Below are positions 3,456-20,537 of a stretch of 64,000 nt of DNA, one piece after another (the stretch's first letter is position 1; each line of letters begins with the position of its first letter). A model generated the notes under the pieces. That model was given only the letters and a program-made list of their open reading frames with translations, searched no databases and was not told where the DNA came from. The DNA lies in the sequence record PX667085.1. The stretch is one strand, 5' to 3'. Origin of the DNA: a phage. A program made the translations under genes and the position numbers.

Positions 3456-5048
3456 GTGTCTACACAATTGAGTTTTACACCTACCGAGGAACAATACGCT
3501 ATTGAAAGCGGGTATAAAGAAAATCGTTTCGTTACAATTCAAGCTAAATCTGGATCAGGTAAAACGTCAACACTGTATATGTTGGCTAATGGCACAAATG
3601 ATAGTATTCTATACTTGGCGTTTAACAAAAGTATGGCAGAGGAAGCTCGACGTAAAATGCCGCCTAACGTTATGTGCCGAACGCTACATTCAATCTGTTA
3701 CCAGCGTCTTCCACAAAACCTTCGACACAAATTGTCTCGTCCAGAAGGTCAATATGTTAACGTAGCTGGAACTGGTAGTGAGATTGCCAAAAAATTCAAG
3801 ATTCAGAACTTGATTGATAAGAATGGTAAAGTGCTACTGACTCGTGCAATGATCGGGTTAATGGTAAAACAAACTTTAGCTAAATATGAGTTTTCTGACG
3901 ATGAACATATTGGACATAAACATTTTCCTAAAGTGCATATGTCAGATCTTAAACGTAAGAACATCAACGAACAAAAACTTATTAACGAAGTTGTTAAATA
4001 TGCGAAGCAACTTTGGCGTGAGCGTATTGATCCTAAATCAGAAACCATTATGACTCATGACACCTATGTGAAACTCTTTGAATTGAGCAAAGAAGACTTA
4101 GGATATGATATTATTTTTGGAGATGAATTCCAGGATGTTAACCCTGCATTCCTGTCTATCCTTCGCAATGCTAAATCGGCTAAACGTATTGTTGTTGTGG
4201 GTGATGAATTTCAGAGTATTTATCAGTTCCGTGGAAGCCAGAACATGATGAAGCAAACGGCTACATATGGGATTGAGTTGCCTCTGACAACTTGTTTTCG
4301 CTTTGGTCCTAAAGTTGCGGATATTGCTAATGCGATCCTTTCTGATCGCTCACCTCTGAAGCATCCGCTGGTAGGCAAAGGTTATGATACTGTCACTGGA
4401 AGTTTTCATTCTGATGTGGTAGATTATAGTAAACCTTACACCATTATTTTCCGTAAGAATTTGACTCTGTTGCTCGAAGCTATGGACCGAATCGCTAACG
4501 GAGAAGAGATTATTATTAACGTAGATACCAAAGATTTCATTTCTATGGTTGATAGTGTTAATGCTTTACGTAGAGGTGATTTGGACAAAGTTAAGCATGA
4601 GACAGTCTTACCTTACACTTCTTGGGAAGAATTTGTAGAGTGTGCAGAATCAGATCCTGATGCAAAACGACTTTTAAACATCGTTGTTTCTGGTAAAGCT
4701 AATAATATTGCATACACTTTACGTATGCACCGTAACTCTCCAACGGCTAAAGTTACTTTAACTACAGCCCACAAATCAAAAGGTTTGGAGTGGGATCAGG
4801 TTATTGTTGCAAATGACTTCCCTTCCAATTATGATAAGAAGGGTGAGTGGGTAGGTCTTGAAGAATCAGAACGAAATCTTCTGTATGTTGCACATACACG
4901 TTGTATTAAATGTCTGCAATGGAACCGGACTGTTCAAGAGATTTTAGACATGCATCGTTTAGGTAAGAGCACGGCTCCTGTATCTGAAGAAGATAAGCTT
5001 ATAGCTGCCCTTGCTCGTAAGATTAATCAAATCAGAGAGGATCGTTAA
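3456..5048 (+). CDS. UvrD/PcrA-like superfamily 1 DNA helicase
   Basis: Walker A SGSGKTS, DEFQD box, VVGDEFQSIYQFRGS, C-terminal TAHKSKGLEWD motif; GTG start after GAGGAG. Confidence 0.8.
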   Translation: MSTQLSFTPTEEQYAIESGYKENRFVTIQAKSGSGKTSTLYMLANGTNDSILYLAFNKSMAEEARRKMPPNVMCRTLHSICYQRLPQNLRHKLSRPEGQYVNVAGTGSEIAKKFKIQNLIDKNGKVLLTRAMIGLMVKQTLAKYEFSDDEHIGHKHFPKVHMSDLKRKNINEQKLINEVVKYAKQLWRERIDPKSETIMTHDTYVKLFELSKEDLGYDIIFGDEFQDVNPAFLSILRNAKSAKRIVVVGDEFQSIYQFRGSQNMMKQTATYGIELPLTTCFRFGPKVADIANAILSDRSPLKHPLVGKGYDTVTGSFHSDVVDYSKPYTIIFRKNLTLLLEAMDRIANGEEIIINVDTKDFISMVDSVNALRRGDLDKVKHETVLPYTSWEEFVECAESDPDAKRLLNIVVSGKANNIAYTLRMHRNSPTAKVTLTTAHKSKGLEWDQVIVANDFPSNYDKKGEWVGLEESERNLLYVAHTRCIKCLQWNRTVQEILDMHRLGKSTAPVSEEDKLIAALARKINQIREDR

Positions 5049-5851: not shown

Positions 5852-7194
5852 ATGTATATACACATAAGCAAGATTTGGTAACAGCGGCAAACAATCGGGG
5901 CTTGTTCGATAGGCTTTGCAAAGCTATTGAAATTGCATATGGTTGGACTAAAGAGACAGATCCTAAACTTACAGGACAATATGCTCTTTTACACGGTTGC
6001 ACAAATTTTCCATACATCTGTCACACAGTCGGGACCAATGAATTTTCTGGAGAGCCGACAGTAGGAGATAATGAGCTACGTTTTACAGGAGATGCAATGC
6101 TAGATTTAATTCTTAAGAAAACTAAAATGCTAAAAATTGAAGATGTTTACACAGACACTAGTAACCTTTCTGAAGAAGAAATTGGAGAAATGATTACTAC
6201 TTTCAATAATACAACAGGGAAGAGTTTTTGGACTAAAAGCGATGCTTCCCGTCTTAAACGAGTAGACCCTGCTATTCCAGAAGACGGTAAGAAGTATCGA
6301 AAAGTTATCTTTTACGATAAAATGGCAGGTCTGGATGCTCTCCATCTTGAGTGTGGAAGCCTTGTGCCTCCGGTTGTTAGAGAACATGAATTTGCAGTTG
6401 AGGTTGAAGCACAGGAGTTTAAAGATATGTTTTATACTAAACATGTAAGAAAAGTGGAAGATGTGGAACAACAAAAAGAGACTTTTGAACCAGAAGACAC
6501 AGAGCCTACCTATATTCCTAATACAGGTATTCAACCTTGCGAGGACTTTGTTCAAGTCCGTTACAAAAATGGTGTTTTAGAAGTATGCAAAGCCAACCAC
6601 TTCGAATGGGAGAAATACGACAGTGAATGGCAGATTGAAGAATATTTTGTTCTCCCAAGAACAGCAAAATACCAAGCCCACATCGGAGGTAGACGCCCTT
6701 GTGATGGTCCTGTTAATGTTCTTTTTCGAAATGGGGACCAAGGAAAAGGGTTGGCAGAGACGTTTTATTGGAGCCACTCTGGAGATGGATCAGATATTGT
6801 AGGTTATATTAAACTTAACCCGTCTCCCCGTTACCGCAAGCGTCGTCAGAAGCCTCCAGTAGGTAAGAAGAGTGTCGTTCGTGTCCTTTACACTACACAG
6901 CAGACATACACATTTAAAAATGTGGTAGACGTGCAAGTGACCGAGGAGCGAGTTTATATCCAATATGATCGTGAAGTTACAGAGGGTATTAAAGAATCGG
7001 TTACTACCGAAATTGAAAATAAGCTTGTTATGGCAATCATTGTGGAAGAAAGTAAAGTAGAGAACGGTAAAGCCTACACTGTTCGTGATAGTTTCTTGCG
7101 TAACATTGATGGAACTTGGGATTATAATGGACACGATGGGACCGCTGTAAAGAACGGTAAGATCATGGGAAGACAATTCCTCTCCAAACGATAA
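5848..7194 (+). CDS. hypothetical protein (448 aa)
   Basis: ATGA overlap with upstream gene; followed by an intrinsic terminator. Confidence 0.55.
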   Translation: MNVYTHKQDLVTAANNRGLFDRLCKAIEIAYGWTKETDPKLTGQYALLHGCTNFPYICHTVGTNEFSGEPTVGDNELRFTGDAMLDLILKKTKMLKIEDVYTDTSNLSEEEIGEMITTFNNTTGKSFWTKSDASRLKRVDPAIPEDGKKYRKVIFYDKMAGLDALHLECGSLVPPVVREHEFAVEVEAQEFKDMFYTKHVRKVEDVEQQKETFEPEDTEPTYIPNTGIQPCEDFVQVRYKNGVLEVCKANHFEWEKYDSEWQIEEYFVLPRTAKYQAHIGGRRPCDGPVNVLFRNGDQGKGLAETFYWSHSGDGSDIVGYIKLNPSPRYRKRRQKPPVGKKSVVRVLYTTQQTYTFKNVVDVQVTEERVYIQYDREVTEGIKESVTTEIENKLVMAIIVEESKVENGKAYTVRDSFLRNIDGTWDYNGHDGTAVKNGKIMGRQFLSKR

Positions 7195-7200
7195 AACTTA

Positions 7201-7224
7201 AAGGCGCACTTTGCGCCTTTTTTG
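7201..7224 (+). terminator. rho-independent terminator
   Basis: Hairpin aaggcgca/tgcgcctt followed by a T6 run. Confidence 0.65.
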
Positions 7225-7294
7225 ATTTTCCTCAAAGCTTTTTTCGGTTGGAAGAGGTAGAATAATAGTTCTACTCACAAAATAAGGATTAATA

Positions 7295-9121
7295 ATGAAA
7301 GATTTGTACCAAGATGTTTTTTCTTTTTTAGATCGCACTTCAGAAACATACACTAGAGAGAATGCAAACAAACCTTCCCACCTCGTTAACACACACAGGG
7401 ATCTCTTGGCGGGGATTTTAAGCAAACATATGGCAATGACACAGATACTGCCAAAAAACTTGTCAGAATGGCATACAGAAGGTTTTGGACATATTCACGA
7501 CTTGGATTATCTGCTCTCTCCTCTTACAAACTGTTGTCTTGTTAATTACCAAGATATGTTAGAAAATGGTTTTAAGATCGGTGCTGCACAGATAGAAAAA
7601 CCAAAATCTATTGGAGTAGCTACCACAGTGCTAACTCAAATCATCCAAGCTGTAGCATCGAGCCAGTATGGTGGACAGACTTGTGCGCATATTGACGAGG
7701 GATTAAAACAATACGTAGAAAAAAGCTACAACAAAATCTTTAATAATCTCAGCAAAAATTATCGTGGTCCTAATACAGAGGACTTAGAGAAAAGGGCGAT
7801 GGAAGTGGTGGACAGTCTTGTTTATGACGCAATGCAAACACTTCTGTATCAAGTTAATACCTTGATGAGTGTGAATGGTCAATCACCATTCATCACTATC
7901 AGCCTCGGCTTGGACACCTCTGTTTTTGGACGAATGATCACTAAGAACTATTTAAAGGTTCATACAGGAGGTCTTGGGAAGGATCGCGTGACCCCAGTAT
8001 TCCCGAAAGTCGTGTTCTTCCTGAAAGACGGGGTGAATATGAAACCGGGTGACCCGAATTACGATCTCAAGCAACTGGCAATGGAATGTTGTGCAGAAAG
8101 GATTTACCCTGATTTCATCTCTGTTCCACTGAACATGGAAGTCACAGGATCTTCAGATGGCAAGGTTACAAGCATGGGTTGCAGAAGCTTCCTTTCTCAC
8201 TATGCCACCGAACAAGGAGAAAAATACGACGGACGATTCAACCTTGGAGTAGTTTCTATCAACTTACCTCTGATCGCTGCGGAAGCGAGAAGTAAAGGAG
8301 AATCTTTCACCGATCTTCTTAATAAACATATGGAGATAGCCTACGATGCTCACATGCTACGTGTAAACCGTATCAGACATACCAAAGCATCTGAAAACCC
8401 TATTCTTTTCATGGAAGGGGCTTTAGCTCGTTTAAATGCCAACGATGAAATTGGTGTTTTGTTTGAAGGTGGTTATGCTTCTATTAGTATTGGTTATGTA
8501 GGTCTTGCCGAAGCTTTGGAAATCCTTTATCCAGAAGAAAAAGATAAAAAGGAACTTGGTAAAAACATTCTGCAACATATGAAAGATGTGTGTGCTGTGT
8601 TTAAAGAACGATCTAATTTGGCGTTTAGTCTCTATGGAACTCCAGCAGAATCTTTGTGCTATAAGTTTGCAACAGCTTTAAATGAAAAATACCCAGGTTT
8701 GGTAGAAAGAGACTATCTTACTAACTCTTTTCATCAACCTGTGTGGTTGGTAACAAACCCTTTTGAAAAATGGGATTATGAAGCAGGTTTTGCACAGATT
8801 AGTAATGGTGGTAACATAAGTTATGTCGAAACACCAAACTTAAAGAATAACTTAGAAGCTTTGGAGACTTTAGTAGACTACGCTTATGAACATATTCACT
8901 ATTTTGGTATTAATCAGCCCGTGGATCAATGCTTTAAGTGTGGTTTTCATGGGGAATTTAAGGCAACGGCTAAAGGGTTTGAGTGTCCTGATTGTGGCAA
9001 CCATGAAGAAGAAACTATTTCTGTAGTTAGACGTGTGTCAGGGTATCTTTCTGCCCCTAACTCACGCCCTTACAACAAAGGTAAAATGCAGGAAGTTTTG
9101 CAAAGGGAGAAACATCTTTGA
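7295..9121 (+). CDS. nrdD: anaerobic ribonucleoside-triphosphate reductase (class III)
   Basis: 608 aa; C-terminal Zn-ribbon CxxC...CPDCG and glycyl-radical-type RVSGYL motif. Confidence 0.8.
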   Translation: MKDLYQDVFSFLDRTSETYTRENANKPSHLVNTHRDLLAGILSKHMAMTQILPKNLSEWHTEGFGHIHDLDYLLSPLTNCCLVNYQDMLENGFKIGAAQIEKPKSIGVATTVLTQIIQAVASSQYGGQTCAHIDEGLKQYVEKSYNKIFNNLSKNYRGPNTEDLEKRAMEVVDSLVYDAMQTLLYQVNTLMSVNGQSPFITISLGLDTSVFGRMITKNYLKVHTGGLGKDRVTPVFPKVVFFLKDGVNMKPGDPNYDLKQLAMECCAERIYPDFISVPLNMEVTGSSDGKVTSMGCRSFLSHYATEQGEKYDGRFNLGVVSINLPLIAAEARSKGESFTDLLNKHMEIAYDAHMLRVNRIRHTKASENPILFMEGALARLNANDEIGVLFEGGYASISIGYVGLAEALEILYPEEKDKKELGKNILQHMKDVCAVFKERSNLAFSLYGTPAESLCYKFATALNEKYPGLVERDYLTNSFHQPVWLVTNPFEKWDYEAGFAQISNGGNISYVETPNLKNNLEALETLVDYAYEHIHYFGINQPVDQCFKCGFHGEFKATAKGFECPDCGNHEEETISVVRRVSGYLSAPNSRPYNKGKMQEVLQREKHL

Positions 9122-9588
9122 ATTTTGCAGGATATGAACCTGTAGATCTTATTAATGGCGAGGGAGTTAGGTGCTCCCTCTGGGTTAGTGGTTGTAGCCA
9201 CGGTTGTCGTGGCTGTTTTAACCAAAAAGCCTGGTCTTATTCTTATGGGAAACCGTTCACTCACGAAAATGTAGAGCAAGTTTTAAAAGATTTGTCAAGA
9301 CCGTTTGTAAAAGGCTTAACAATTTTAGGAGGAGAGCCATTAGATCCACAGAATATTTACAATGTTAAAAACCTTATAGAAAAGGTTAGAGACGTTTATG
9401 GGTCAAGCAAAGATATAATGGTGTATACAGGGTATACTTTTGAGGAAGTGCCTTTGTATATTAAAAATCTTGTTGACATTATTGTAGACGGAAAGTATGA
9501 AATAAACAATCCAACTACAAAACCTTTCAGAGGGTCAGATAATCAAAGATTATGGACCAAAACGGCAAGTGGTTGGCAATCAGATTAA
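9118..9588 (+). CDS. nrdG: anaerobic ribonucleotide reductase activating protein (radical SAM)
   Basis: YEPVDLINGEGVRCSLWVSGCSHGCRGCFN matches the NrdG N-terminal cluster; TTG start overlapping the nrdD stop. Confidence 0.8.
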   Translation: MNFAGYEPVDLINGEGVRCSLWVSGCSHGCRGCFNQKAWSYSYGKPFTHENVEQVLKDLSRPFVKGLTILGGEPLDPQNIYNVKNLIEKVRDVYGSSKDIMVYTGYTFEEVPLYIKNLVDIIVDGKYEINNPTTKPFRGSDNQRLWTKTASGWQSD

Positions 9589-10415: not shown

Positions 10416-11072
10416 ATGACTATTAAACATATCTCTTTTGATGTATGGAACACACTGATCACAGCAAACTCCAATTACGCAGACATGCGAGCCTGGACTA
10501 TCGCAAAATATGGAGATATTACGGAAGTGGAAGCAAGAGCAGCTTATAAAAAGATCAAAAAGGAACTGGATAATGCAGCACTTCAAGGCAAAGCCGAGTG
10601 TGCAGCATATGCCTGGGAAAGACTTGGTTCTGAACTTGGGATAACGCCTTGGAAGTCTGCAAAGCTTCGTTTCGAGTGTGAACAGTGGTTCCTTAAGTTT
10701 CCACCACACGTAGCCGTAGATCTGCCGATGTACTTGCTGTATCTTTCGGGGCGTTATGATTTGAGTATTAAGAGCAACACCAACTTCATATCAGGAGATA
10801 TCCTGCGTCGTGCTTGTAAGTTTGATAGTTGGAATTGTTTTGAGTTCACCCATTTCTCGGATGAAGCTTTACTTTGTAAACCAGATCCGCGATTCTTTGC
10901 TCGCACGCTCACGTATTCTCCGATCCCTCTGTTAGGGCACGAAGTGTTGCACGTAGGCGATAGTGAAGAATATGATGGAAAATGTGTTGACTTAGGATTT
11001 AACTTCTGTCATATTAAGAACCCTAACGACTTACTAGAGAAACTTAAAAGAGGAGAAATTGTAAATGCGTAA
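10416..11072 (+). CDS. HAD-superfamily hydrolase-like protein
   Basis: N-terminal ISFDVWNTLI (HAD motif I, dehalogenase-like variant) and C-terminal HVGDSEEYD. Confidence 0.55.
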   Translation: MTIKHISFDVWNTLITANSNYADMRAWTIAKYGDITEVEARAAYKKIKKELDNAALQGKAECAAYAWERLGSELGITPWKSAKLRFECEQWFLKFPPHVAVDLPMYLLYLSGRYDLSIKSNTNFISGDILRRACKFDSWNCFEFTHFSDEALLCKPDPRFFARTLTYSPIPLLGHEVLHVGDSEEYDGKCVDLGFNFCHIKNPNDLLEKLKRGEIVNA

Positions 11073-11892
11073 TCAAACTCAAATTTTTGCAAATAAATTT
11101 GATGACCTGGAAACTGCTACTTTTGATATCCAAGATTATTCAAAATTGAAATTTGGTAGTAACCAAGCTGCGCGTCGTATGGGTAAAGAATTGGCACTTC
11201 AGTTTTTTGCTCAAGTGGCAATGAAACATATTGGGGAACAATTTGTTATCATTCCTTCTCCTTATAACCATGTGCATAATGCTGCAACAATGATGACAGA
11301 TCATTTTATTAATTATTTTAATATGTTGCAATCACAATATGATCAAGGTCGTTCAGCAGAACTGGACATTATTCATCGTAAAGTTAGCTATATCAACGAT
11401 TATGGTTTCTTGGATAAAGCTAGTCGTAAGAAACTTATTGATGGGGATACATTCTACTGCAACAAAGAATTCTGGGGCGATAAGAAGCTTGTATTCATTG
11501 ATGATGTAAATATCACTGGAACGCATGAAGACAAACTGATTGAGATCCTTGATGAAAATCAAGTTAAAAATGATGTTTACTTCTTGTATTTTGCAAAATA
11601 CGAAGGTAATCAAGCAGATACCGAAGCTAAACTGAATTTTAACTACATTAATACACCAGAAGCGTTTGTTAAAATGATTAATGAAGAACGTGATGCACAG
11701 TGTCTTGTTCGTCCTATTAAGTATCTTATGGGCCAAAATCATGAAGACTTCAAAATCATTCTTAGCCAATTGCCACATTACTATGTAGAGCAACTTTTCT
11801 TTGGATGCTTGGGAGAAGGTTACAACCGAATTTCAAAGTATGCTGAAAACTTTGAATTCTTGGATCGTTACACAAAACAACACATTCTGTAA
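11065..11892 (+). CDS. phosphoribosyltransferase (type I PRTase) family protein
   Basis: PRPP-binding signature LVFIDDVNITGTH. Confidence 0.6.
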   Translation: MRNQTQIFANKFDDLETATFDIQDYSKLKFGSNQAARRMGKELALQFFAQVAMKHIGEQFVIIPSPYNHVHNAATMMTDHFINYFNMLQSQYDQGRSAELDIIHRKVSYINDYGFLDKASRKKLIDGDTFYCNKEFWGDKKLVFIDDVNITGTHEDKLIEILDENQVKNDVYFLYFAKYEGNQADTEAKLNFNYINTPEAFVKMINEERDAQCLVRPIKYLMGQNHEDFKIILSQLPHYYVEQLFFGCLGEGYNRISKYAENFEFLDRYTKQHIL

Positions 11893-11905
11893 TAAGGAGC
11901 TAAAA

Positions 11906-12379
11906 ATGCTTAAAATGAAAACAGGTAATCTTATTGATGCCGCTAAAGCAGGTGAAGTAACTGTTATTGCTCATTGTTGCAACTGTATGTGTAATATGGG
12001 GGCAGGTATTGCCCCACAAATTAAACAAGCATTCCCTTATGCATATGCGGCAGATTTAGACACAAGGGCTGGTGATCAAAGTAAGTTAGGTTCTTTTAGT
12101 TTAGGGGTGCCAGACGAACAATCAGACCCTTTGGTATATAATCTATACGGGCAATACCGTTACGGATACAATGCTAAAGGTCGTCAGTTGGACTATGATG
12201 CACTTTATGATGCACTAATAGCTATGGCTAATGATTTGCTTCTCCGTGACCAAAAATGTAAGATCGGCTTACCTATGATTGGCGCTGGATATGCTGGAGG
12301 TAATTGGGCTATCATCCAAGTGATGATTGAAGAAACTTTAGTAAAAACAGGTCACGATGTGACTATTTATAAACTTTAA
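11906..12379 (+). CDS. macro-domain protein (ADP-ribose-type ligand binding/processing)
   Basis: VIAHCCNCMCNMGAGIA and LPMIGAGYAGG align to the two glycine-rich macro-domain loops; AAGGAGC then ATG at 11906. Confidence 0.65.
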   Translation: MLKMKTGNLIDAAKAGEVTVIAHCCNCMCNMGAGIAPQIKQAFPYAYAADLDTRAGDQSKLGSFSLGVPDEQSDPLVYNLYGQYRYGYNAKGRQLDYDALYDALIAMANDLLLRDQKCKIGLPMIGAGYAGGNWAIIQVMIEETLVKTGHDVTIYKL

Positions 12380-12692: not shown

Positions 12693-13667
12693 ATGCAACT
12701 TGGTTTCCCAATTATTGATGTAGTTGTTTTAGTTGGTATTTTGGCATTGTCTATTGGTATCGATTTCTTTGGTCATAAAGAGAATAAAGAAATTGGAATT
12801 AAATCTGCTTTGCTTTGGTCTGTTTTTTGGATTGCTTTAGCTTTAGGATATTACGCATTCATTTGGGTAGAACATGGTAAAGAGTTTGCCGCGCTTTTCC
12901 TAAGTGGCTATGTGTTGGAAAAGAGTCTTTCTGTAGATAACCTGATGGTGTTCATGGCAATTTTTGCAAGCTTTGGAATTAAGAGCACACATCTCCAACA
13001 TAAGATTTTACTTTGGGGGATTGCAGGAGCCATTGTCTTCCGAGGTATTTTTGTTGCAGCAGGGACCGCTTTGTTTAACCTTCATTGGTCGGTCCAAGTG
13101 TTGTTCGGTTTGATTGTAGCTTGGTCTGCCGTGGCTATCATCAAAGGTGGTGACGAAGAAGAGGATATTGATTACTCTAAGCATTGGGCTGTTCGTTTAG
13201 TAGGTAAAGTTCTGCCTGTGCACAATGCACTAGATGGTGAAAAGTTCATTACCATTAAGAATGGTATTAAATATGCAACTCCTGCTCTTCTTTGTGTGTT
13301 TGTTATTGAGCTTACAGATATTGTCTTCTCTTTTGATTCAGTTCCGGCTGTGATCGGTGTGACACAAGAACCTCTGCTAGTTTATTCTGCAATGCTGATG
13401 GCTGTTCTTGGTTTACGTGCACTTTTCTTTGTGTTAAGTGTAGCTGTGAAATATCTGGTTCACTTAGAGAAAGCTGTTGCTGTGGTTCTGGTGTTTGTCG
13501 GTGCTAAACTTATGTATCACCCGTTCGGTGAAACACTTCATGCCAAATGGTCATTCCTCCCGCATGATATTTCCCCTAACGTAAGTCTGATGATTGTTCT
13601 AGGCACATTAGCTCTTGGTGTTATTGCAAGCTTTATCTTCCCTGAAAAAGAAGAAGCTGCTGTTTAA
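12693..13667 (+). CDS. terC: TerC-family integral membrane protein
   Basis: Multi-pass membrane protein with the EKSLSVDN motif characteristic of the TerC family. Confidence 0.75.
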   Translation: MQLGFPIIDVVVLVGILALSIGIDFFGHKENKEIGIKSALLWSVFWIALALGYYAFIWVEHGKEFAALFLSGYVLEKSLSVDNLMVFMAIFASFGIKSTHLQHKILLWGIAGAIVFRGIFVAAGTALFNLHWSVQVLFGLIVAWSAVAIIKGGDEEEDIDYSKHWAVRLVGKVLPVHNALDGEKFITIKNGIKYATPALLCVFVIELTDIVFSFDSVPAVIGVTQEPLLVYSAMLMAVLGLRALFFVLSVAVKYLVHLEKAVAVVLVFVGAKLMYHPFGETLHAKWSFLPHDISPNVSLMIVLGTLALGVIASFIFPEKEEAAV

Positions 13668-15292: not shown

Positions 15293-15883
15293 ATGCATAC
15301 CGAGAGAGACTTGCAACTCTTGTGGTGGGAAGTGATGCAGGAAATAAAAGAAGATTTTCCTGTTTACTACAACATGTTACGTGAAGCAGGATATAAAGCT
15401 TGTGTTAGAAACAAAGTGAATAACTCTTTCGGTTGGTGCAACTACCGAGATAAAATTGTTGTTGTAAATTGGCACTTGCATAAGAACTCCACAAGAGATA
15501 TGATCGTGGATACAATGAAGCACGAAATTGCTCATGCTATTGATGGTTGTATGGGTAAGTTTAGTAGACACGGTGCTCATTGGCAAAAACTGGCAGCAGA
15601 GTTAGGGGCTAATCCTAAAGCCACTTCCAAAGAGCCGTTGAACCACGAATATAAATATGTTCTTGTTCTGGTAGATAGGTTTGCGACAAGATGTGTTAGA
15701 GGTTATAATCGTAAACCTAATCGCATGTACCCAGGTAAGCAACCTAATATGTGGTTGAAATCAGATAAAGAAGGGACCGAAGGAAAATTATGGTTGTATA
15801 AATGGGACGATTGGGTTAAAGTAGCTAAAGAGTACGGTGTTTCACCATATATAAGAGATGCAGAAGAGGAGAATGAAGAATGA
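15293..15883 (+). CDS. SprT-like zinc metallopeptidase domain protein
   Basis: HEIAH (HExxH) motif in an SprT-like context. Confidence 0.45.
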   Translation: MHTERDLQLLWWEVMQEIKEDFPVYYNMLREAGYKACVRNKVNNSFGWCNYRDKIVVVNWHLHKNSTRDMIVDTMKHEIAHAIDGCMGKFSRHGAHWQKLAAELGANPKATSKEPLNHEYKYVLVLVDRFATRCVRGYNRKPNRMYPGKQPNMWLKSDKEGTEGKLWLYKWDDWVKVAKEYGVSPYIRDAEEENEE

Positions 15884-16992
15884 CAAGTCCATTTTTAAAA
15901 GCAGCTACTGGTGGTCAGAAGAAGCCTGAAATGAGCGTATTTGCTGCAACAACAGATGCAAGTAAATCTGTATTCGCTCCAAGCGTGTTAGATGCCAGTC
16001 CTGTTTATGCACCAGCGGCACCGCAAGAAGTTCCAGTTTTGCCTTCTATGACCCGACAAGAGATTGAAGAGATTGGGGCAGAGGCAGGAACAACCTTGCG
16101 TTCCTTGAATGCCGAGGTGTTAAAACATCAACGTAGTAATCAAGGCGATCAGATGAGTGAACGACTCACAGCTTTGATTAAACAGGCAAAACAACTTGAT
16201 CCAAACTCTATTAAACAAAGCAAGGGTATTACTAAACTCATTAAAAAAGTTATGGGTATGAAAGAAGACCTGTTCGGGGAGTTTGATAATGTTAATAACC
16301 GTATTGAAGAGTTGGTAAAGAACCTTCAAATGGATATTCGCAAAGAAGAAGATTCCTTGGTATATCTTGAAAAGCTACATCAAGCTATTGGACAATATGC
16401 TGCAAGTTTGAACCGAGATATGCAGCTTCTAACAGCAACCTATGAAAAAGAAGAACAAGCTTTGGCTGCTCTTCCAGAAGATGCAGTAGAACAGCGACAA
16501 GTGATCCGAGATACTTTGGATCTTCTGGAGATTCGTATTGCAGATTTAAAAGCATTGCGCCTACTGTGTGTCCAAATGGGACCGCGTGTACAAGGTATGC
16601 AAAAAGTTTCTGCAAGCTTAATGCGATCTGCGCGTAACATAGTAAATAATGTTATTCCTGCTTACTCTGCTAACTTCTCAATGTATATCGAGAGCTTACG
16701 TCAAATGAAAGCAGCAGAGACGCAGAATAACGTTCTTGATGAATTTAACCTGGCAATTAAACTGGGTAGCGATCTTGCCACACAGAATCAGATCGAAGCA
16801 GCAGCACTGGCTAACCGTCAAGTGTTGGATATTGAAACTCTGCGTCACGATCAGGAAAACTTGGTTAAGATGTTGGAAGAAACTAACCGCATCAATACGG
16901 AAGCCCGTGCTGCTCGTGTTGATTATATTAATGAAGTTCAATCTCTGGAAGACGGGATGGTAGCTGCTGTGAAACGAGGGCTTGGTAAATGA
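15880..16992 (+). CDS. hypothetical alpha-helical protein (370 aa; TelA-like is a speculation)
   Basis: Disordered Ala/Pro-rich N-terminus then long helical region; ATGA overlap. Confidence 0.5.
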   Translation: MTSPFLKAATGGQKKPEMSVFAATTDASKSVFAPSVLDASPVYAPAAPQEVPVLPSMTRQEIEEIGAEAGTTLRSLNAEVLKHQRSNQGDQMSERLTALIKQAKQLDPNSIKQSKGITKLIKKVMGMKEDLFGEFDNVNNRIEELVKNLQMDIRKEEDSLVYLEKLHQAIGQYAASLNRDMQLLTATYEKEEQALAALPEDAVEQRQVIRDTLDLLEIRIADLKALRLLCVQMGPRVQGMQKVSASLMRSARNIVNNVIPAYSANFSMYIESLRQMKAAETQNNVLDEFNLAIKLGSDLATQNQIEAAALANRQVLDIETLRHDQENLVKMLEETNRINTEARAARVDYINEVQSLEDGMVAAVKRGLGK

Positions 16993-17186
16993 GAATCCGT
17001 ATCTATATAATTGATGAAGACATTGGTGTCCGTTATGATGACGAAAAACGATTCGCACCGATGGGAGGCATATATCCCCCAAGTGTTCTAGCAGTTTGTC
17101 GTGATTGTTATATTTATGAAGGTTGTCGTAACTTCCGTAAATTCGAACTCCTTGCAGATATTGACTTCAATGAGGAGGAGGAGTAA
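16989..17186 (+). CDS. hypothetical protein (65 aa)
   Basis: ATGA overlap with upstream gene. Confidence 0.45.
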   Translation: MRIRIYIIDEDIGVRYDDEKRFAPMGGIYPPSVLAVCRDCYIYEGCRNFRKFELLADIDFNEEEE

Positions 17187-17359
17187 TGAAAATATTACGA
17201 GTGAATATTGAAACTGCTTGGTGTGGATGCAATGAGGTTGTGGATATCGAAATTGAAGATGATATGTCTCAAGAGGATATAGAAGATCTTGCACACGAAA
17301 CCTTTCAGGATTATTGTAATTACGGGTTCCATATTTTAGAGGAGGAAGAAGATGTATAA
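17186..17359 (+). CDS. small acidic hypothetical protein (57 aa, absent from ORF track)
   Basis: ATG overlaps upstream stop (TAATG); GGAGGAGGAG ribosome binding site; 3-prime end overlaps next start. Confidence 0.35.
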   Translation: MKILRVNIETAWCGCNEVVDIEIEDDMSQEDIEDLAHETFQDYCNYGFHILEEEEDV

Positions 17360-17750
17360 TCCAACAGGTATTCTTTTAAAACTTACAGTAACAGACCCTA
17401 CTCTTTTCACTAAGTTAGCAAGTGGTGAAGTTTATGAAGTAATGAAAGATGGTGACGGTTGGTGTTATCTTTGTGGCTACTTCCTCTGTGATGCAGAAGA
17501 GTTAGAGTCCATTGTAACTAAAGGTTTTTATGAAGAACCAGGGTTCCGTGTGGAAACTACGCAGAAACCTGATACCATTACGCTGACTCGACAGGAACTG
17601 ATCACAATCATTGAAGATGCTTTTATTGATGGCTGGAATACACAAGATAATGACTGGGGTGGACCCGAAGCTTTTCTGGAACATCATAAAGCTTATGGAG
17701 AATTTTGTGAAACCACTGTAGCTCTTGATAATCTGAAGGAGGGTTTGTAA
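17352..17750 (+). CDS. hypothetical protein (132 aa)
   Basis: GAGGAGG ribosome binding site. Confidence 0.55.
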   Translation: MYNPTGILLKLTVTDPTLFTKLASGEVYEVMKDGDGWCYLCGYFLCDAEELESIVTKGFYEEPGFRVETTQKPDTITLTRQELITIIEDAFIDGWNTQDNDWGGPEAFLEHHKAYGEFCETTVALDNLKEGL

Positions 17751-18319
17751 TGGGTTGCTTTAGTTTTCTGTGTAAGGAGTCGGGCAAAGCTGCCCTCTCC
17801 ACCTCTTTCGATGGATCTCCTTGCTATCTCTTTCTACTGAAAGATGGAAAGGTTATCGAAGAGATGCACGGCAATTATGATAGTTATGGGCGTGTCTTCT
17901 CCAGTAAGCAGGATGCTCACGGGAACAGAGAAAGCTTTAAATGGACTATACCTTGGAGCGACGTTTGTGATCTTATGTTCTCTGTAAACCGTGGAGACGG
18001 TATTGCTATGGTTTTAGCAGAACACTTTACAGGAGAAGCCCCCACAGAACGATCCGAGGATGATCCTAATCAAGGTTGGGGAGACGGAGAAGAAGAGGAA
18101 GAAGAGGATTATTTCTACAGCACCGAAAATAATATTTTCAAACGTGTTGACAACCCTTATCATAAAGTGCATAATGTCCTCACTGAAACAGAAGACGACA
18201 AAATGGAAATTGAAGAAGATGATCCTCTTGTAACACTTCCTATAAGTGAGTTACAAAAGATCACTAAGGAAGCTTACGATTTGGGCTTCAAAATTGGTAG
18301 AGGAGGTATGCGTGTTTAG
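17750..18319 (+). CDS. hypothetical acidic protein (189 aa)
   Basis: TAATG overlap; poly-Glu stretch. Confidence 0.55.
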   Translation: MGCFSFLCKESGKAALSTSFDGSPCYLFLLKDGKVIEEMHGNYDSYGRVFSSKQDAHGNRESFKWTIPWSDVCDLMFSVNRGDGIAMVLAEHFTGEAPTERSEDDPNQGWGDGEEEEEEDYFYSTENNIFKRVDNPYHKVHNVLTETEDDKMEIEEDDPLVTLPISELQKITKEAYDLGFKIGRGGMRV

Positions 18320-18590
18320 ATTCAATATTCAAGAAGAAAAAAGTCAAGATTTACCTATTGCTTTCGAAGATCTTGACGTAGGGGCAACATTCATGTATTA
18401 TGATGCCTATGAAGACGCAGGGTTGGATACCTACCGTAACTTGGTGTTCATTAAAAATTCCACAAACAGTGCGATTTGTATTAATGGATCACTAGCACAA
18501 CGAGGCTATACTCATTGCATCCCACCAGATACAAATATGGTGGAAGTAGATTTAGAAGTTACCAATATTACACTTAAGAAGGAGAAATAA
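18312..18590 (+). CDS. small hypothetical protein, cassette paralog A
   Basis: GTG start 5 nt after GGAGG; paralog of 19612-19881 (shared DLDVG.TF, LEV.LTV.ITLK). Confidence 0.5.
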   Translation: MFRFNIQEEKSQDLPIAFEDLDVGATFMYYDAYEDAGLDTYRNLVFIKNSTNSAICINGSLAQRGYTHCIPPDTNMVEVDLEVTNITLKKEK

Positions 18591-18591
18591 T

Positions 18592-19386
18592 ATGTCCGAG
18601 AAAATCAGCCTGAAAAAACGTCAAGAAAACCTTGCTTTCTCTCTGAAAAAGAATAAGAACCTGAATGAAGGTAAGATTGTTCTTCGTGTAGCATGTGCTC
18701 TAGATATTTCTGGTAGTATGCATGGTCTATATTCTAGTGGGGTAGTGAGTGATTTTGTAGGTAAACTGCTTCCTTTTGGTATGCTGTTCGACGATAATCA
18801 ACAAATTGATATGTGGGCCTTCAATACGAGTTCCCAAGAGCTTACTCCAGCAACAGCAGACGTTTACGATGACTATGTTGGTAAATGTATGCGTAATGTT
18901 CGTATCGGAGGTGGAACAAATTACGCCCCTGTAATGGCAGATATCTACGATGAGTATTTTGGCACTGTTACCAAATATATTACCACTAAACAAGTGGTAC
19001 AAGAGGAGGCTCCAAAGAAAGGCTTCTTTAATCGTCTGCTTGGTAAAACTGAAACAGTGTCTGTAGAGCGTGAAAAAGTTGTAGCTGTATCTGAACCAGG
19101 TGCTGACGTTACCCCTGGTGTTGTATTCTTCCAGACGGATGGTGAGAATGGTGATCCTAGTGCTGTTCGTCGTCTTATTGAAGAGAATAAGAATAAACCT
19201 ATTTATTGGTTCATGGTTGGCGTTGGTAATGAGAAGTTTGGGTTCCTGAAAGAACTGGCAAATGCTTATGATAATGTTGGTTTTATTGGCATTAAAGATT
19301 TAGACTTGACAGATTCAGAGCTTTATGACAAACTCTTATCTGAGGAGTTCGGAGAGTGGGTTGTTAAAGTAGGTGCTAAAAAATGA
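18592..19386 (+). CDS. von Willebrand factor A (vWA) domain protein, TerY-like
   Basis: MIDAS motif DISGSM, downstream GGTNY and QTDGENGD; N-terminal KISLKK motif shared with TerD. Confidence 0.65.
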   Translation: MSEKISLKKRQENLAFSLKKNKNLNEGKIVLRVACALDISGSMHGLYSSGVVSDFVGKLLPFGMLFDDNQQIDMWAFNTSSQELTPATADVYDDYVGKCMRNVRIGGGTNYAPVMADIYDEYFGTVTKYITTKQVVQEEAPKKGFFNRLLGKTETVSVEREKVVAVSEPGADVTPGVVFFQTDGENGDPSAVRRLIEENKNKPIYWFMVGVGNEKFGFLKELANAYDNVGFIGIKDLDLTDSELYDKLLSEEFGEWVVKVGAKK

Positions 19387-19631
19387 TCGACGAGCTTGCC
19401 TCTCAAGTCATAGAAAATTATTGGCGCGAGAGAGAAGCTTTCATTATGCGCAGTCTCAAAGAGTATTTCATTGGGACTGTGCGAATGGAAGATATTGTAA
19501 GTAGAGTGGAGATTCATGTATGGCCCGATTATGAAGAATGGGTTGACAAAGAAAATGAAAATGCTATAATTCTTCGTATATACAAACCGGAGATAACATT
19601 AGGAGGAAGAAGTGTTAAACTTCGAAATTGA
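19383..19631 (+). CDS. hypothetical protein (82 aa)
   Basis: ATGA overlap with vWA gene. Confidence 0.45.
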   Translation: MIDELASQVIENYWREREAFIMRSLKEYFIGTVRMEDIVSRVEIHVWPDYEEWVDKENENAIILRIYKPEITLGGRSVKLRN

Positions 19632-19881
19632 TGAGCAAAAAGTAAATAAACGATGCCTTACCATTAAAGATTTGGATGTAGGAGATACTTTCGTCTATGA
19701 AAATGCATTTGACGAAAATGGTTTAGACCTTAGTGAAATCATTGTTTATTTAAAAGTAGATGATGGGGAAAATGATTATTCTGCTGTAGAACTAAACCAT
19801 CATGCACAATTAGTATCAATCCAAAACACATCTAAGCTTTTGGAAGTAGAATTGACTGTAACTGGTATTACACTTAAATAA
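19612..19881 (+). CDS. small hypothetical protein, cassette paralog B
   Basis: GTG start 5 nt after AGGAGG; paralog of 18312-18590. Confidence 0.5.
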   Translation: MLNFEIDEQKVNKRCLTIKDLDVGDTFVYENAFDENGLDLSEIIVYLKVDDGENDYSAVELNHHAQLVSIQNTSKLLEVELTVTGITLK

Positions 19882-19896
19882 TAGAGGAGACAAAAG

Positions 19897-20499
19897 ATGA
19901 CTGATAAAATTTCCCTGAAAAAAGGCTCTAGCGAAAAAATTTCCCTGAAGAAAGTTGCTCCGGCTCTGAAAGAACTGCGCCTGGAATTCTCTTGGAAATC
20001 TGATTCTAAACTGGATCTGGATGTAAGTGCACTGGTTTGTCGTCACAATGCCGCTGGTAATCCTGAAATGCTGTCTGCACGTCATCTGGTTTGCTATGCT
20101 AACAAGTTTGATCCTGAACGTTCTACCTTCGCTGGTGACGATGTTCGTGATGGAACTGGCAGCATGGAGCAGATTGATATTACTCTGGCTAAAATCTCTC
20201 CTGATGCACAAGAGATTGCCTTTGTTCTGACCATTGATGATGATACAGGTCTGAAACGTTTTGGTCATGCTTCTGAAGGTATGCTTAAAATCTTCGACTC
20301 CGAGCGCAATGTGGAAATTCTGGATTTTGACTTCCTGGCTCCTGAAGTAGCTGGCAACACAATCTGCCACGTGGCTTCCTTGGTTCGTGAAGATGGGGAA
20401 TGGAAGCTGAAAGCATATGGTGTAGGTAAAGCTGGTCTGGATATTTGTGATGTGGTGATGGCCTTCGGTGGTAAAAAAGAATGGTATGAATGTCCATAA
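19897..20499 (+). CDS. terD: TerD-domain protein
   Basis: Matches E. coli TerD (recalled from memory): N-terminal SLKKG...ISLKK, DLDVSAL, GDDVRDGTGS, IAFVLTIDD, DGEWKLKAYG. Confidence 0.8.
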   Translation: MTDKISLKKGSSEKISLKKVAPALKELRLEFSWKSDSKLDLDVSALVCRHNAAGNPEMLSARHLVCYANKFDPERSTFAGDDVRDGTGSMEQIDITLAKISPDAQEIAFVLTIDDDTGLKRFGHASEGMLKIFDSERNVEILDFDFLAPEVAGNTICHVASLVREDGEWKLKAYGVGKAGLDICDVVMAFGGKKEWYECP

Positions 20500-20517: not shown

Positions 20518-20537
20518 GAGGGGGAGAAATCCCCCTC
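20518..20537 (+). terminator. GC-rich hairpin, putative terminator
   Basis: gaggggg/ccccctc stem after terD; weak T-tract. Confidence 0.45.

Follow-up and report, generated by a model that had tools for sequence, protein, structure and literature searches.

We analysed a 64,000-nt stretch of phage DNA (sequence record PX667085.1, hereafter the window) and focused on a 2.9-kb region in which two small paralogous genes each precede a gene of the Ter (tellurite-resistance-type stress/conflict) families. On the plus strand lie, in this order, an open reading frame (ORF) for an acidic protein of 189 amino acids (aa) (17750-18319; phrog_14928), the first small gene, small1 (18312-18590; 92 aa), a gene for a TerF-type von Willebrand factor A (vWA) protein (18592-19386; 264 aa, PF10138), the conserved orf82 (19383-19631; 82 aa, phrog_22387), the second small gene, small2 (19612-19881; 89 aa), a gene for a TerD-domain protein (19897-20499; 200 aa, PF02342), a G+C-rich hairpin (20518-20537) and a gene for a SleB-like cell-wall hydrolase. 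We refer to the pre-vWA paralog, small1, as the s1 type and to the pre-TerD paralog, small2, as the s2 type. The region shares 99.4% identity with Escherichia phage ECO340P1 and 95-97% with about 50 further phAPEC8-like phages (Phapecoctavirus, Stephanstirmvirinae); by sequence, the source phage is a phAPEC8-like coliphage of the genus Phapecoctavirus. Nearly all genes of the region are labelled 'hypothetical protein' in the ECO340P1 and phAPEC8-like records, and TerD is named in some of them.

Both small ORFs start with GTG, each with a 5-nt spacer behind a GGAGG sequence (GTG at 18312 and GGAGG at 18302-18306 for small1; GTG at 19612 and GGAGG at 19602-19606 for small2), and the homologues in diverged phages carry ATG at the position aligned with this GTG. 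The encoded proteins align over their full length with 34% identity (BLASTP, E=2e-14). Both match PHROG 11278 (phrog_11278), small1 with E=4.2e-51 over positions 1-92 of 92 and small2 with E=7e-45 over positions 1-89 of 92, and their pairwise ratios of nonsynonymous to synonymous substitution rates (dN/dS) of 0.21-0.40 correspond to purifying selection. Judged by these comparisons, small1 and small2 are genuine paralogous genes. Small2 carries a short insertion, DDGENDY, and lacks the C-terminal KKEK tail of small1. All members of the family are acidic, with isoelectric points (pI) of 4.3-5.4.

Small1 is tightly linked to the genes on either side. With its GTG start it overlaps the stop of the 189-aa gene on its 5′ side, its stop codon lies 1 nt before the vWA ATG, and the codons of its C-terminal KKEK, AAG AAG GAG AAA (AAGAAGGAGAAA), provide the vWA gene with its Shine-Dalgarno sequence. 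Read from the sequence, small1 and the vWA gene show the classical arrangement of translational coupling. The 189-aa gene is absent from locus L010, where small1 is preceded by a different gene. At the junction AAG-AAG-GAG-AAA-TAA-T-ATG, the vWA gene is moreover read in the +1 frame of small1 and AGGAG lies just 5′ of the stop as in prfB; the same 1-nt spacing is found in phi92, PsgM04F and L010. These features could be taken to indicate a programmed +1 frameshift at AAA-TAA-T that fuses small1 to the vWA protein, yielding an SH3-vWA protein. We consider such a fusion extremely unlikely: an AGGAG that precedes an ATG by 7 nt makes an ideal site for ordinary initiation, phage 05F01 has another frame relation, with a 1-nt overlap of the two genes, the arrangement is absent in phages with the order vWA-small-TerD, and the N-terminal segment of the vWA protein described below begins at Met1 in all homologues.

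Candidate transcription signals were found upstream of both small genes, all on the plus strand. A sigma-70-like promoter candidate (18147-18175; TTGACA-17-CATAAT, 11/12 consensus positions) lies within the 189-aa gene, about 135 nt 5′ of small1; both of its hexamers are kept in SKA64, phi92 and PsgM04F, and the spacer shows synonymous changes. A perfect extended sigma-70 promoter (19543-19570; TTGACA-16-TG-n-TATAAT, 12/12) lies in the 3′ part of orf82, about 40 nt 5′ of the small2 GTG. It is retained with 12/12 positions in four genomes that have diverged at a synonymous distance (dS) of about 1, and in which the −10 hexamer does not encode the same residues (AII vs VIM). Orf82 itself occurs only in phages that also carry small2, is under constraint (dN/dS 0.20-0.34) and overlaps small2 with its final 20 nt; phi92, which lacks both orf82 and small2, has a 10/12 promoter in its vWA-TerD spacer. 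Just 3′ of TerD, the hairpin at 20518-20537 (GAGGGGGA-GAAA-TCCCCCTC; minimum free energy −17.5 kcal/mol, z=−2.7) has no clear T-run and was not called by the terminator scan; from its sequence and place we regard it as the likely terminator of a small2-TerD unit. With the conserved promoter at one end and the hairpin at the other, small2 and TerD look like an independent transcription unit that depends on the host polymerase, and the promoter suggests that both genes are transcribed early by host RNA polymerase.

The two downstream proteins belong to different Ter families. The vWA protein matches PF10138 with 130.1 bits (cut-off 29.4) in two stretches that flank an insertion, and the Pfam vWA-TerF-like domain begins at its residue 31. 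The metal-ion-dependent adhesion site (MIDAS) of vWA domains has the pattern DxSxS...T...D; the corresponding residues D38, S40, S42, T109 and D183 are all found in the protein and show little or no variation across an alignment of 20 sequences, comprising homologues from phages, prophages and metagenomes with identities as low as 29%. Among solved structures, none is related to the vWA protein by sequence. The TerD protein matches PF02342 with 98.9 bits (cut-off 25.3; residues 5-179 on model positions 3-177 of 187) and can be aligned, head included, over its full length with Klebsiella TerD (2kxt/2kxv; E=1.5e-15 for 2kxt) and with the Streptomyces structure 3ibz (E=2.9e-14), including the VSLSKGG-NVSLSK segment. 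Compared with Klebsiella TerD, the turn in this segment is 2 residues longer and the phage head is much more basic (+5). Klebsiella TerD binds Ca2+ through acidic loops; the phage loop GDDVRDGTGSMEQ aligns with the acidic loop GDNRTGEGDGDDE of 2kxt, and some of the acidic residues are replaced.

Both proteins open with a common basic head of the form φSLxK, turn, φSLxK (φ, hydrophobic residue), which starts MSEKISLKK in the vWA protein and MTDKISLKKGSSEKISLKK in TerD. The vWA head comprises residues 1-30 (ISLKKRQENLAFSLKK; 18592-18681, plus strand) and lies outside the Pfam vWA model, and the TerD head ISLKKGSSEKISLKK is the canonical TerD N-terminus, pairing with VSLSKGG--NVSLSK of Klebsiella TerD. 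A BLASTP comparison of the two proteins found a common part of about 20 residues at the N-terminus and nothing else, and the alignment of the two families with hhalign likewise covered the heads only (32 columns, E=5e-4, probability 31%). A double φxLxK motif within the first 35 residues is present in 2 of the 185 window ORFs of at least 60 aa, namely in the vWA and TerD proteins. When the first 45 residues are used alone, the TerD head matches the Pfam TerD model and the vWA head does not, so that the resemblance is visible profile-to-profile and by motif only.

The head is not confined to this phage. L7, K9, L18 and K20 are invariant or nearly so in the 20-sequence vWA alignment, and the double motif φxLxK-(2-8)-φxφx[KQ] is found in 19 of these 20 homologues, including those of phages without a small gene. 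The vWA head feature φxLxK(R/K)xE..φxLxK, which lies outside the Pfam model, was derived in the present analysis. The same head occurs in the TerF-type fusions P0066 and P0069, within the linker that joins TerD to vWA; in the 60-residue linker of P0069 (156-215), to which nothing else is assigned, its sequence is ISLSKQRLISLEKTAP and bears a striking resemblance to the TerD start VSLSKGGNVSLSKTAP. From the i, i+2 alternation of hydrophobic residues we infer that the head forms a beta-hairpin like strands 1-2 of TerD.

A preliminary description of the region, made from the sequence and its ORFs, had interpreted these features as a two-gene cassette that was duplicated with domain swapping. The sequence-level observations behind it are all borne out: the GTG starts 5 nt after GGAGG, the paralogy of the two ~90-aa ORFs, whose alignment is significant from end to end, the assignment of one partner to vWA and of the other to TerD, and the similar ISLKK-type heads, which are alike over about 20 residues or 32 profile columns and not beyond. 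As to the layout, each small gene does precede its partner, but the two units are not adjacent, orf82 (19383-19631) being placed between them. The evolutionary conclusion does not survive. It would require that small gene and head-bearing gene were duplicated as a whole and that one body then exchanged vWA for TerD, with the KISLKK head as a relic, and it can draw on the alignable heads and on a weak colinear DNA similarity that runs from the 3′ end of the small genes through ribosome-binding site and ATG into the head (37 nt at 76% and 39 nt at 77%, at offsets of 1300 and 1305). We judge this course of events very unlikely for the following reasons: (i) the head is family-wide, since it also occurs where a vWA-TerF-like protein is encoded away from any small gene, as in the distant phage L013 and the Neobacillus island L012, and in the TerD-vWA fusions; (ii) the phage vWA head has the K-R-x-E turn of its orthologues and not the TerD-type turn K-G/S-x-x-K, and was thus not copied from TerD; (iii) the head serine codons belong to different classes (AGC vs TCC); (iv) DNA similarity between the units is limited to short stretches of about 75-76%, and its extension across the gene junction is explained by the Shine-Dalgarno sequence and the similar peptides; and (v) there are relatives with a single small gene, located either before vWA or between vWA and TerD. 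On the sequences compared, the common head is an old family-level segment of the TerD and vWA-TerF-like families that involved no local swap, and the small gene is the only part of the units that was duplicated.

We predicted the structure of small1 with AlphaFold2 from an 18-sequence alignment (mean predicted local distance difference test score, pLDDT, 85.3; predicted template modelling score, pTM, 0.72). An earlier model from 7 close sequences had reached a pLDDT of 47 and was discarded. In the model, about 12 disordered N-terminal residues are followed by a small barrel with one short helix, and the small proteins are thus predicted to be acidic SH3-like beta-barrels. A Foldseek search with the small1 model gave no significant match in the PDB; in BFVD, the phAPEC8 small2 orthologue ranks first, ahead of an assortment of small phage proteins that are uncharacterised. 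Known SH3-like barrels (ribosomal L2 C-domain, DtxR/IdeR C-terminal domain, FeoA, EF-P/eIF5A KOW, Tudor) share 4-19% identity with the small protein, which amounts to no sequence similarity, and the small protein has an extra short helix behind its first strand; the SH3-like label of the model denotes a fold class and not a family assignment. PADLOC and NCBIfam returned no match for the small proteins, the vWA protein, TerD or orf82. A KOW-/SH3-like barrel that binds nucleic acids could serve as a translational or transcriptional autoregulator of the downstream gene. The acidic pI argues against nucleic-acid binding, and we consider autoregulation improbable.

We determined the distribution of the small family by a profile search that covered 1.84 billion representative proteins and yielded 36 matches. 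Sixteen of these are shorter than 100 aa and comprise 13 full-length homologues (87-93 aa) and 3 fragments of 54-55 aa. The remaining 20 are giant repeat proteins, which we rejected as homologues. Their match consists of a short D-V-G-D-T-L-x-Y motif in DUF11-like/cadherin-like repeats that contributes 2-15 bits per repeat; the E-values sum over 8-22 repeats, two unrelated repeat families are involved, and the predicted fold differs. Homology across the whole ~100-residue Ig-like repeat, which marks DUF11-type/cadherin-like membership, is not seen in the small proteins. A word-indexed search with small1 retrieved close relatives only. In phage GenBank, 127 records carry the small gene and 210 a vWA-TerF-like protein. 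As far as these searches reach, the family is confined to Stephanstirmvirinae-like phages, with two copies in Phapecoctavirus and one in phi92-like Justusliebigvirus, and no further copies were found within the 64-kb window or any fetched locus.

The gene order differs among the carriers. The order small-vWA-TerD is found in phi92 and in Klebsiella phage 05F01, the order small-vWA-orf81/82-small-TerD in the window, PsgM04F, L010 and L011, and the order vWA-small-TerD in the metagenomic phages L006, L007 and L009, which are more distant; L005 shows small-TerD. Metagenomic loci were located by exact-protein look-ups. In a neighbour-joining tree, the pre-vWA copies, which all end in a K(K/E)EK tail, group together (75% bootstrap), the Phapecoctavirus-type pre-TerD copies make up a second clade (73%), and the distant vWA-small-TerD group a third (97%). 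The separation of pre-vWA and pre-TerD copies into different clades indicates that the duplication is old. In the simplest reading of the sequences, the small gene alone was duplicated, anciently, and phi92-like and 05F01-like phages are without the pre-TerD copy, the direction of the individual duplication and loss events being our inference. Overall, we regard the anatomy and history of the region as described here as highly probable.

Some nearly identical Phapecoctavirus and Justusliebigvirus genomes have been deposited under the names of Campylobacter, Acinetobacter, Klebsiella, Serratia and Pseudomonas phages, one example being Campylobacter phage B15, whose small1 is 98.9% identical. 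The host labels of these near-identical genomes look doubtful, or else the host range is unusually broad. The two genera were also compared beyond TerD: in phi92 (L002), TerD is directly followed by gp171 (6788-7390; 200 aa), which shows 17% identity in the alignment and is no TerD paralog. Since gp171 replaces nothing in the window, the genera differ downstream of TerD, too.

The region forms the distal part of a Ter cluster carried by a Phapecoctavirus phage, and we propose that each small protein is made together with its neighbour and acts as a paralog-specific partner. The s1-type protein would be coupled to the vWA protein at translation, via the Shine-Dalgarno sequence in its last codons, and the s2-type protein would be co-transcribed with TerD from the conserved consensus sigma-70 promoter up to the hairpin. 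The small proteins might then function as adaptors, assembly factors or holding factors for their two neighbours, the vWA and TerD proteins, whose presumed place of action in Ter systems is beneath the membrane. To the whole account, SH3-like small proteins that were duplicated long ago and are coupled to and partner the vWA and TerD proteins of a phage Ter cluster, we assign a probability of roughly 0.55. The partnership by itself we put at close to even odds, with a slight lean against it. A dedicated partner or regulator role, which the preliminary description had also suggested, is plausible in view of the invariant gene neighbourhood: the small gene adjoins vWA and/or TerD in every context examined except L008, where the two neighbours of the small gene are cut by contig ends and have no family assignment.

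The main rival to the proposed partnership is that the small proteins are unrelated to Ter and are lineage-specific phage proteins, for example for host takeover or anti-defence, which are carried along by conserved synteny. The family is limited to one phage lineage, many small uncharacterised genes surround small1 and small2 in the early-gene block, vWA and TerD genes occur elsewhere without small genes, constraint on the small genes is relatively relaxed, and their structural neighbours in BFVD are the assorted small phage proteins mentioned above. Against such passengers, the small gene has moved or been duplicated, yet it is found beside vWA and/or TerD wherever both neighbours could be identified. 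This adjacency persists even at vWA protein identities of 44-50% and with other neighbours that differ, small1 is tightly coupled to vWA at the level of translation, small2 and TerD have a dedicated promoter in common, and both paralogs were retained, each with its own neighbour. Taking both sides together, we consider passenger genes doubtful, and clearly more probable than any of the other alternatives discussed here.

Several further observations weigh against our proposal of paralog-specific partners. The vWA and TerD genes are present without a small gene in phage L013 and in the Neobacillus prophage-like island L012, and 83 phage GenBank records have the vWA protein and no small-gene match, among them phages of Caulobacter, Brevundimonas and Pseudomonas. 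It follows that the core function can do without the small protein, and L013, which has no small gene, retains basic heads. The dN/dS values of the small genes (0.21-0.40) lie above those of the vWA and TerD genes (0.06-0.14), and an SH3-like fold, being generic, reveals little of what a protein does. Since the carriers are all members of a single, broadly syntenic lineage of phages, their conserved neighbourhood is weaker evidence than one shared by unrelated genomes, and the support for the pre-vWA and pre-TerD clades is moderate, the branching order of the three groups not being settled by the tree. No small-gene-like ORFs were found in the other Ter-carrying phages or the prophage-like island examined (L013 and L012); small ORFs upstream of vWA in L013 were considered as hidden family members and rejected (hhalign probability <1%).

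A more specific version of the proposed partnership concerns the common head. In phages with a small gene, the vWA and TerD heads are strongly basic, with +5 to +8 per 25 residues, and an acidic small protein facing a basic head is compatible with head binding. The small proteins might be dedicated readers of the head, each binding the head of its neighbour and controlling the timing or place of oligomerisation or sub-membrane docking. We rate this possibility as unlikely, marginally above autoregulation.

The remaining Ter genes lie upstream of the 2.9-kb region. On the plus strand, we identified a HAD-like hydrolase (10416-11072; weak match), a ComF-like phosphoribosyltransferase (PRTase; 11065-11892; PRTase_3, 2.2e-41), TerC (12693-13667; 3e-40), a SprT-like zinc-metallopeptidase (15293-15883; HEIAH motif) and TelA (15880-16992; 3.2e-33). 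TerC, PRTase, HAD-like hydrolase, TelA, vWA and TerD are all encoded on one strand within 10 kb, and the gene-set test for Ter systems was positive. Together they make up a rather complete Ter system that includes the presumed nucleotide-metabolite enzymes; TerB, TerA and TerZ were not seen in the examined part of the window. The SprT-like gene overlaps the TelA start by 4 nt, and the pair is conserved in L010 and PsgM04F. To our knowledge, a TelA-coupled protease lies outside the usual description of Ter systems. A 192-aa ORF (11801-12379) shows a weak Macro-domain match (Pfam E=8e-4, below the cut-off) and an NCBIfam match to DarG (E=1e-8 across about 45 residues; DarG-antitoxin-like), and its product could be an ADP-ribose-removing anti-defence protein; the start of this ORF is uncertain because it is a TTG and the ORF overlaps the end of the PRTase gene. 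A 57-aa protein (17186-17359) has a DUF7167 match just under the cut-off (E=7.5e-5). Further upstream of the Ter block are a UvrD-like helicase (3456-5048), the anaerobic ribonucleotide reductase NrdD (7295-9121) and the NrdG activase (9118-9588), and two ORFs of 184 aa and 448 aa between the helicase and NrdD/NrdG have no Pfam match.

Ter systems occur widely, in bacteria, on plasmids and in large phages, and their mechanism is obscure. Abbreviated Ter operons have been described in phages (Iyer et al. 2021, PMC7824862; phiKp34, bioRxiv 10.1101/2021.03.02.433402; ZCKP1, PMC6141743), and the role proposed for them is exclusion of superinfecting phages or stress tolerance (PMC7824862). TelA and the TerF vWA protein have been proposed to build sub-membrane structures, with TerD as a ligand sensor (PMC7824862). 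The window contains the same set as the Ter systems, those of some large phages included, in that work (PMC7824862), namely TerC, TelA, TerD, TerF-type vWA, ComF-like PRTase and HAD-like hydrolase, and differs from them in the extra small SH3-like proteins. In the literature on Ter systems covered by our search, outside of which the main comparative paper lay, neither the small proteins nor the PF10138 heads are mentioned.

Compared with TerF, in which PF02342 and PF10138 are fused, the phage vWA protein is a PF10138 protein with the same pre-domain head as the P0066 and P0069 linkers, and with TerD encoded near the vWA gene the pair looks like a split TerF. In contrast to the fusion, the phage genes are separate and in the reverse order, vWA then TerD, with orf82 and small2 between them, and vWA and TerD are each preceded by a small barrel protein. 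The region is a modest variant of the known Ter system and no new kind of system, and it would be an ordinary finding should the small proteins prove to be syntenic passengers and nothing more. Recognition of a conserved head of about 25 residues that is missed by the PF10138 model is a concrete improvement in annotation, and its family-wide occurrence hints that the two families share their origin or their mode of docking. If the small proteins were readers of this head, the head would be a previously unrecognised interaction module of two Ter families and the small proteins a switch invented by phages. If they are true partners of the vWA and TerD proteins, two small proteins with two targets and a short common head would provide a simple handle on the assembly of the soluble Ter components, and would also show what a virulent coliphage gains from a Ter cluster.

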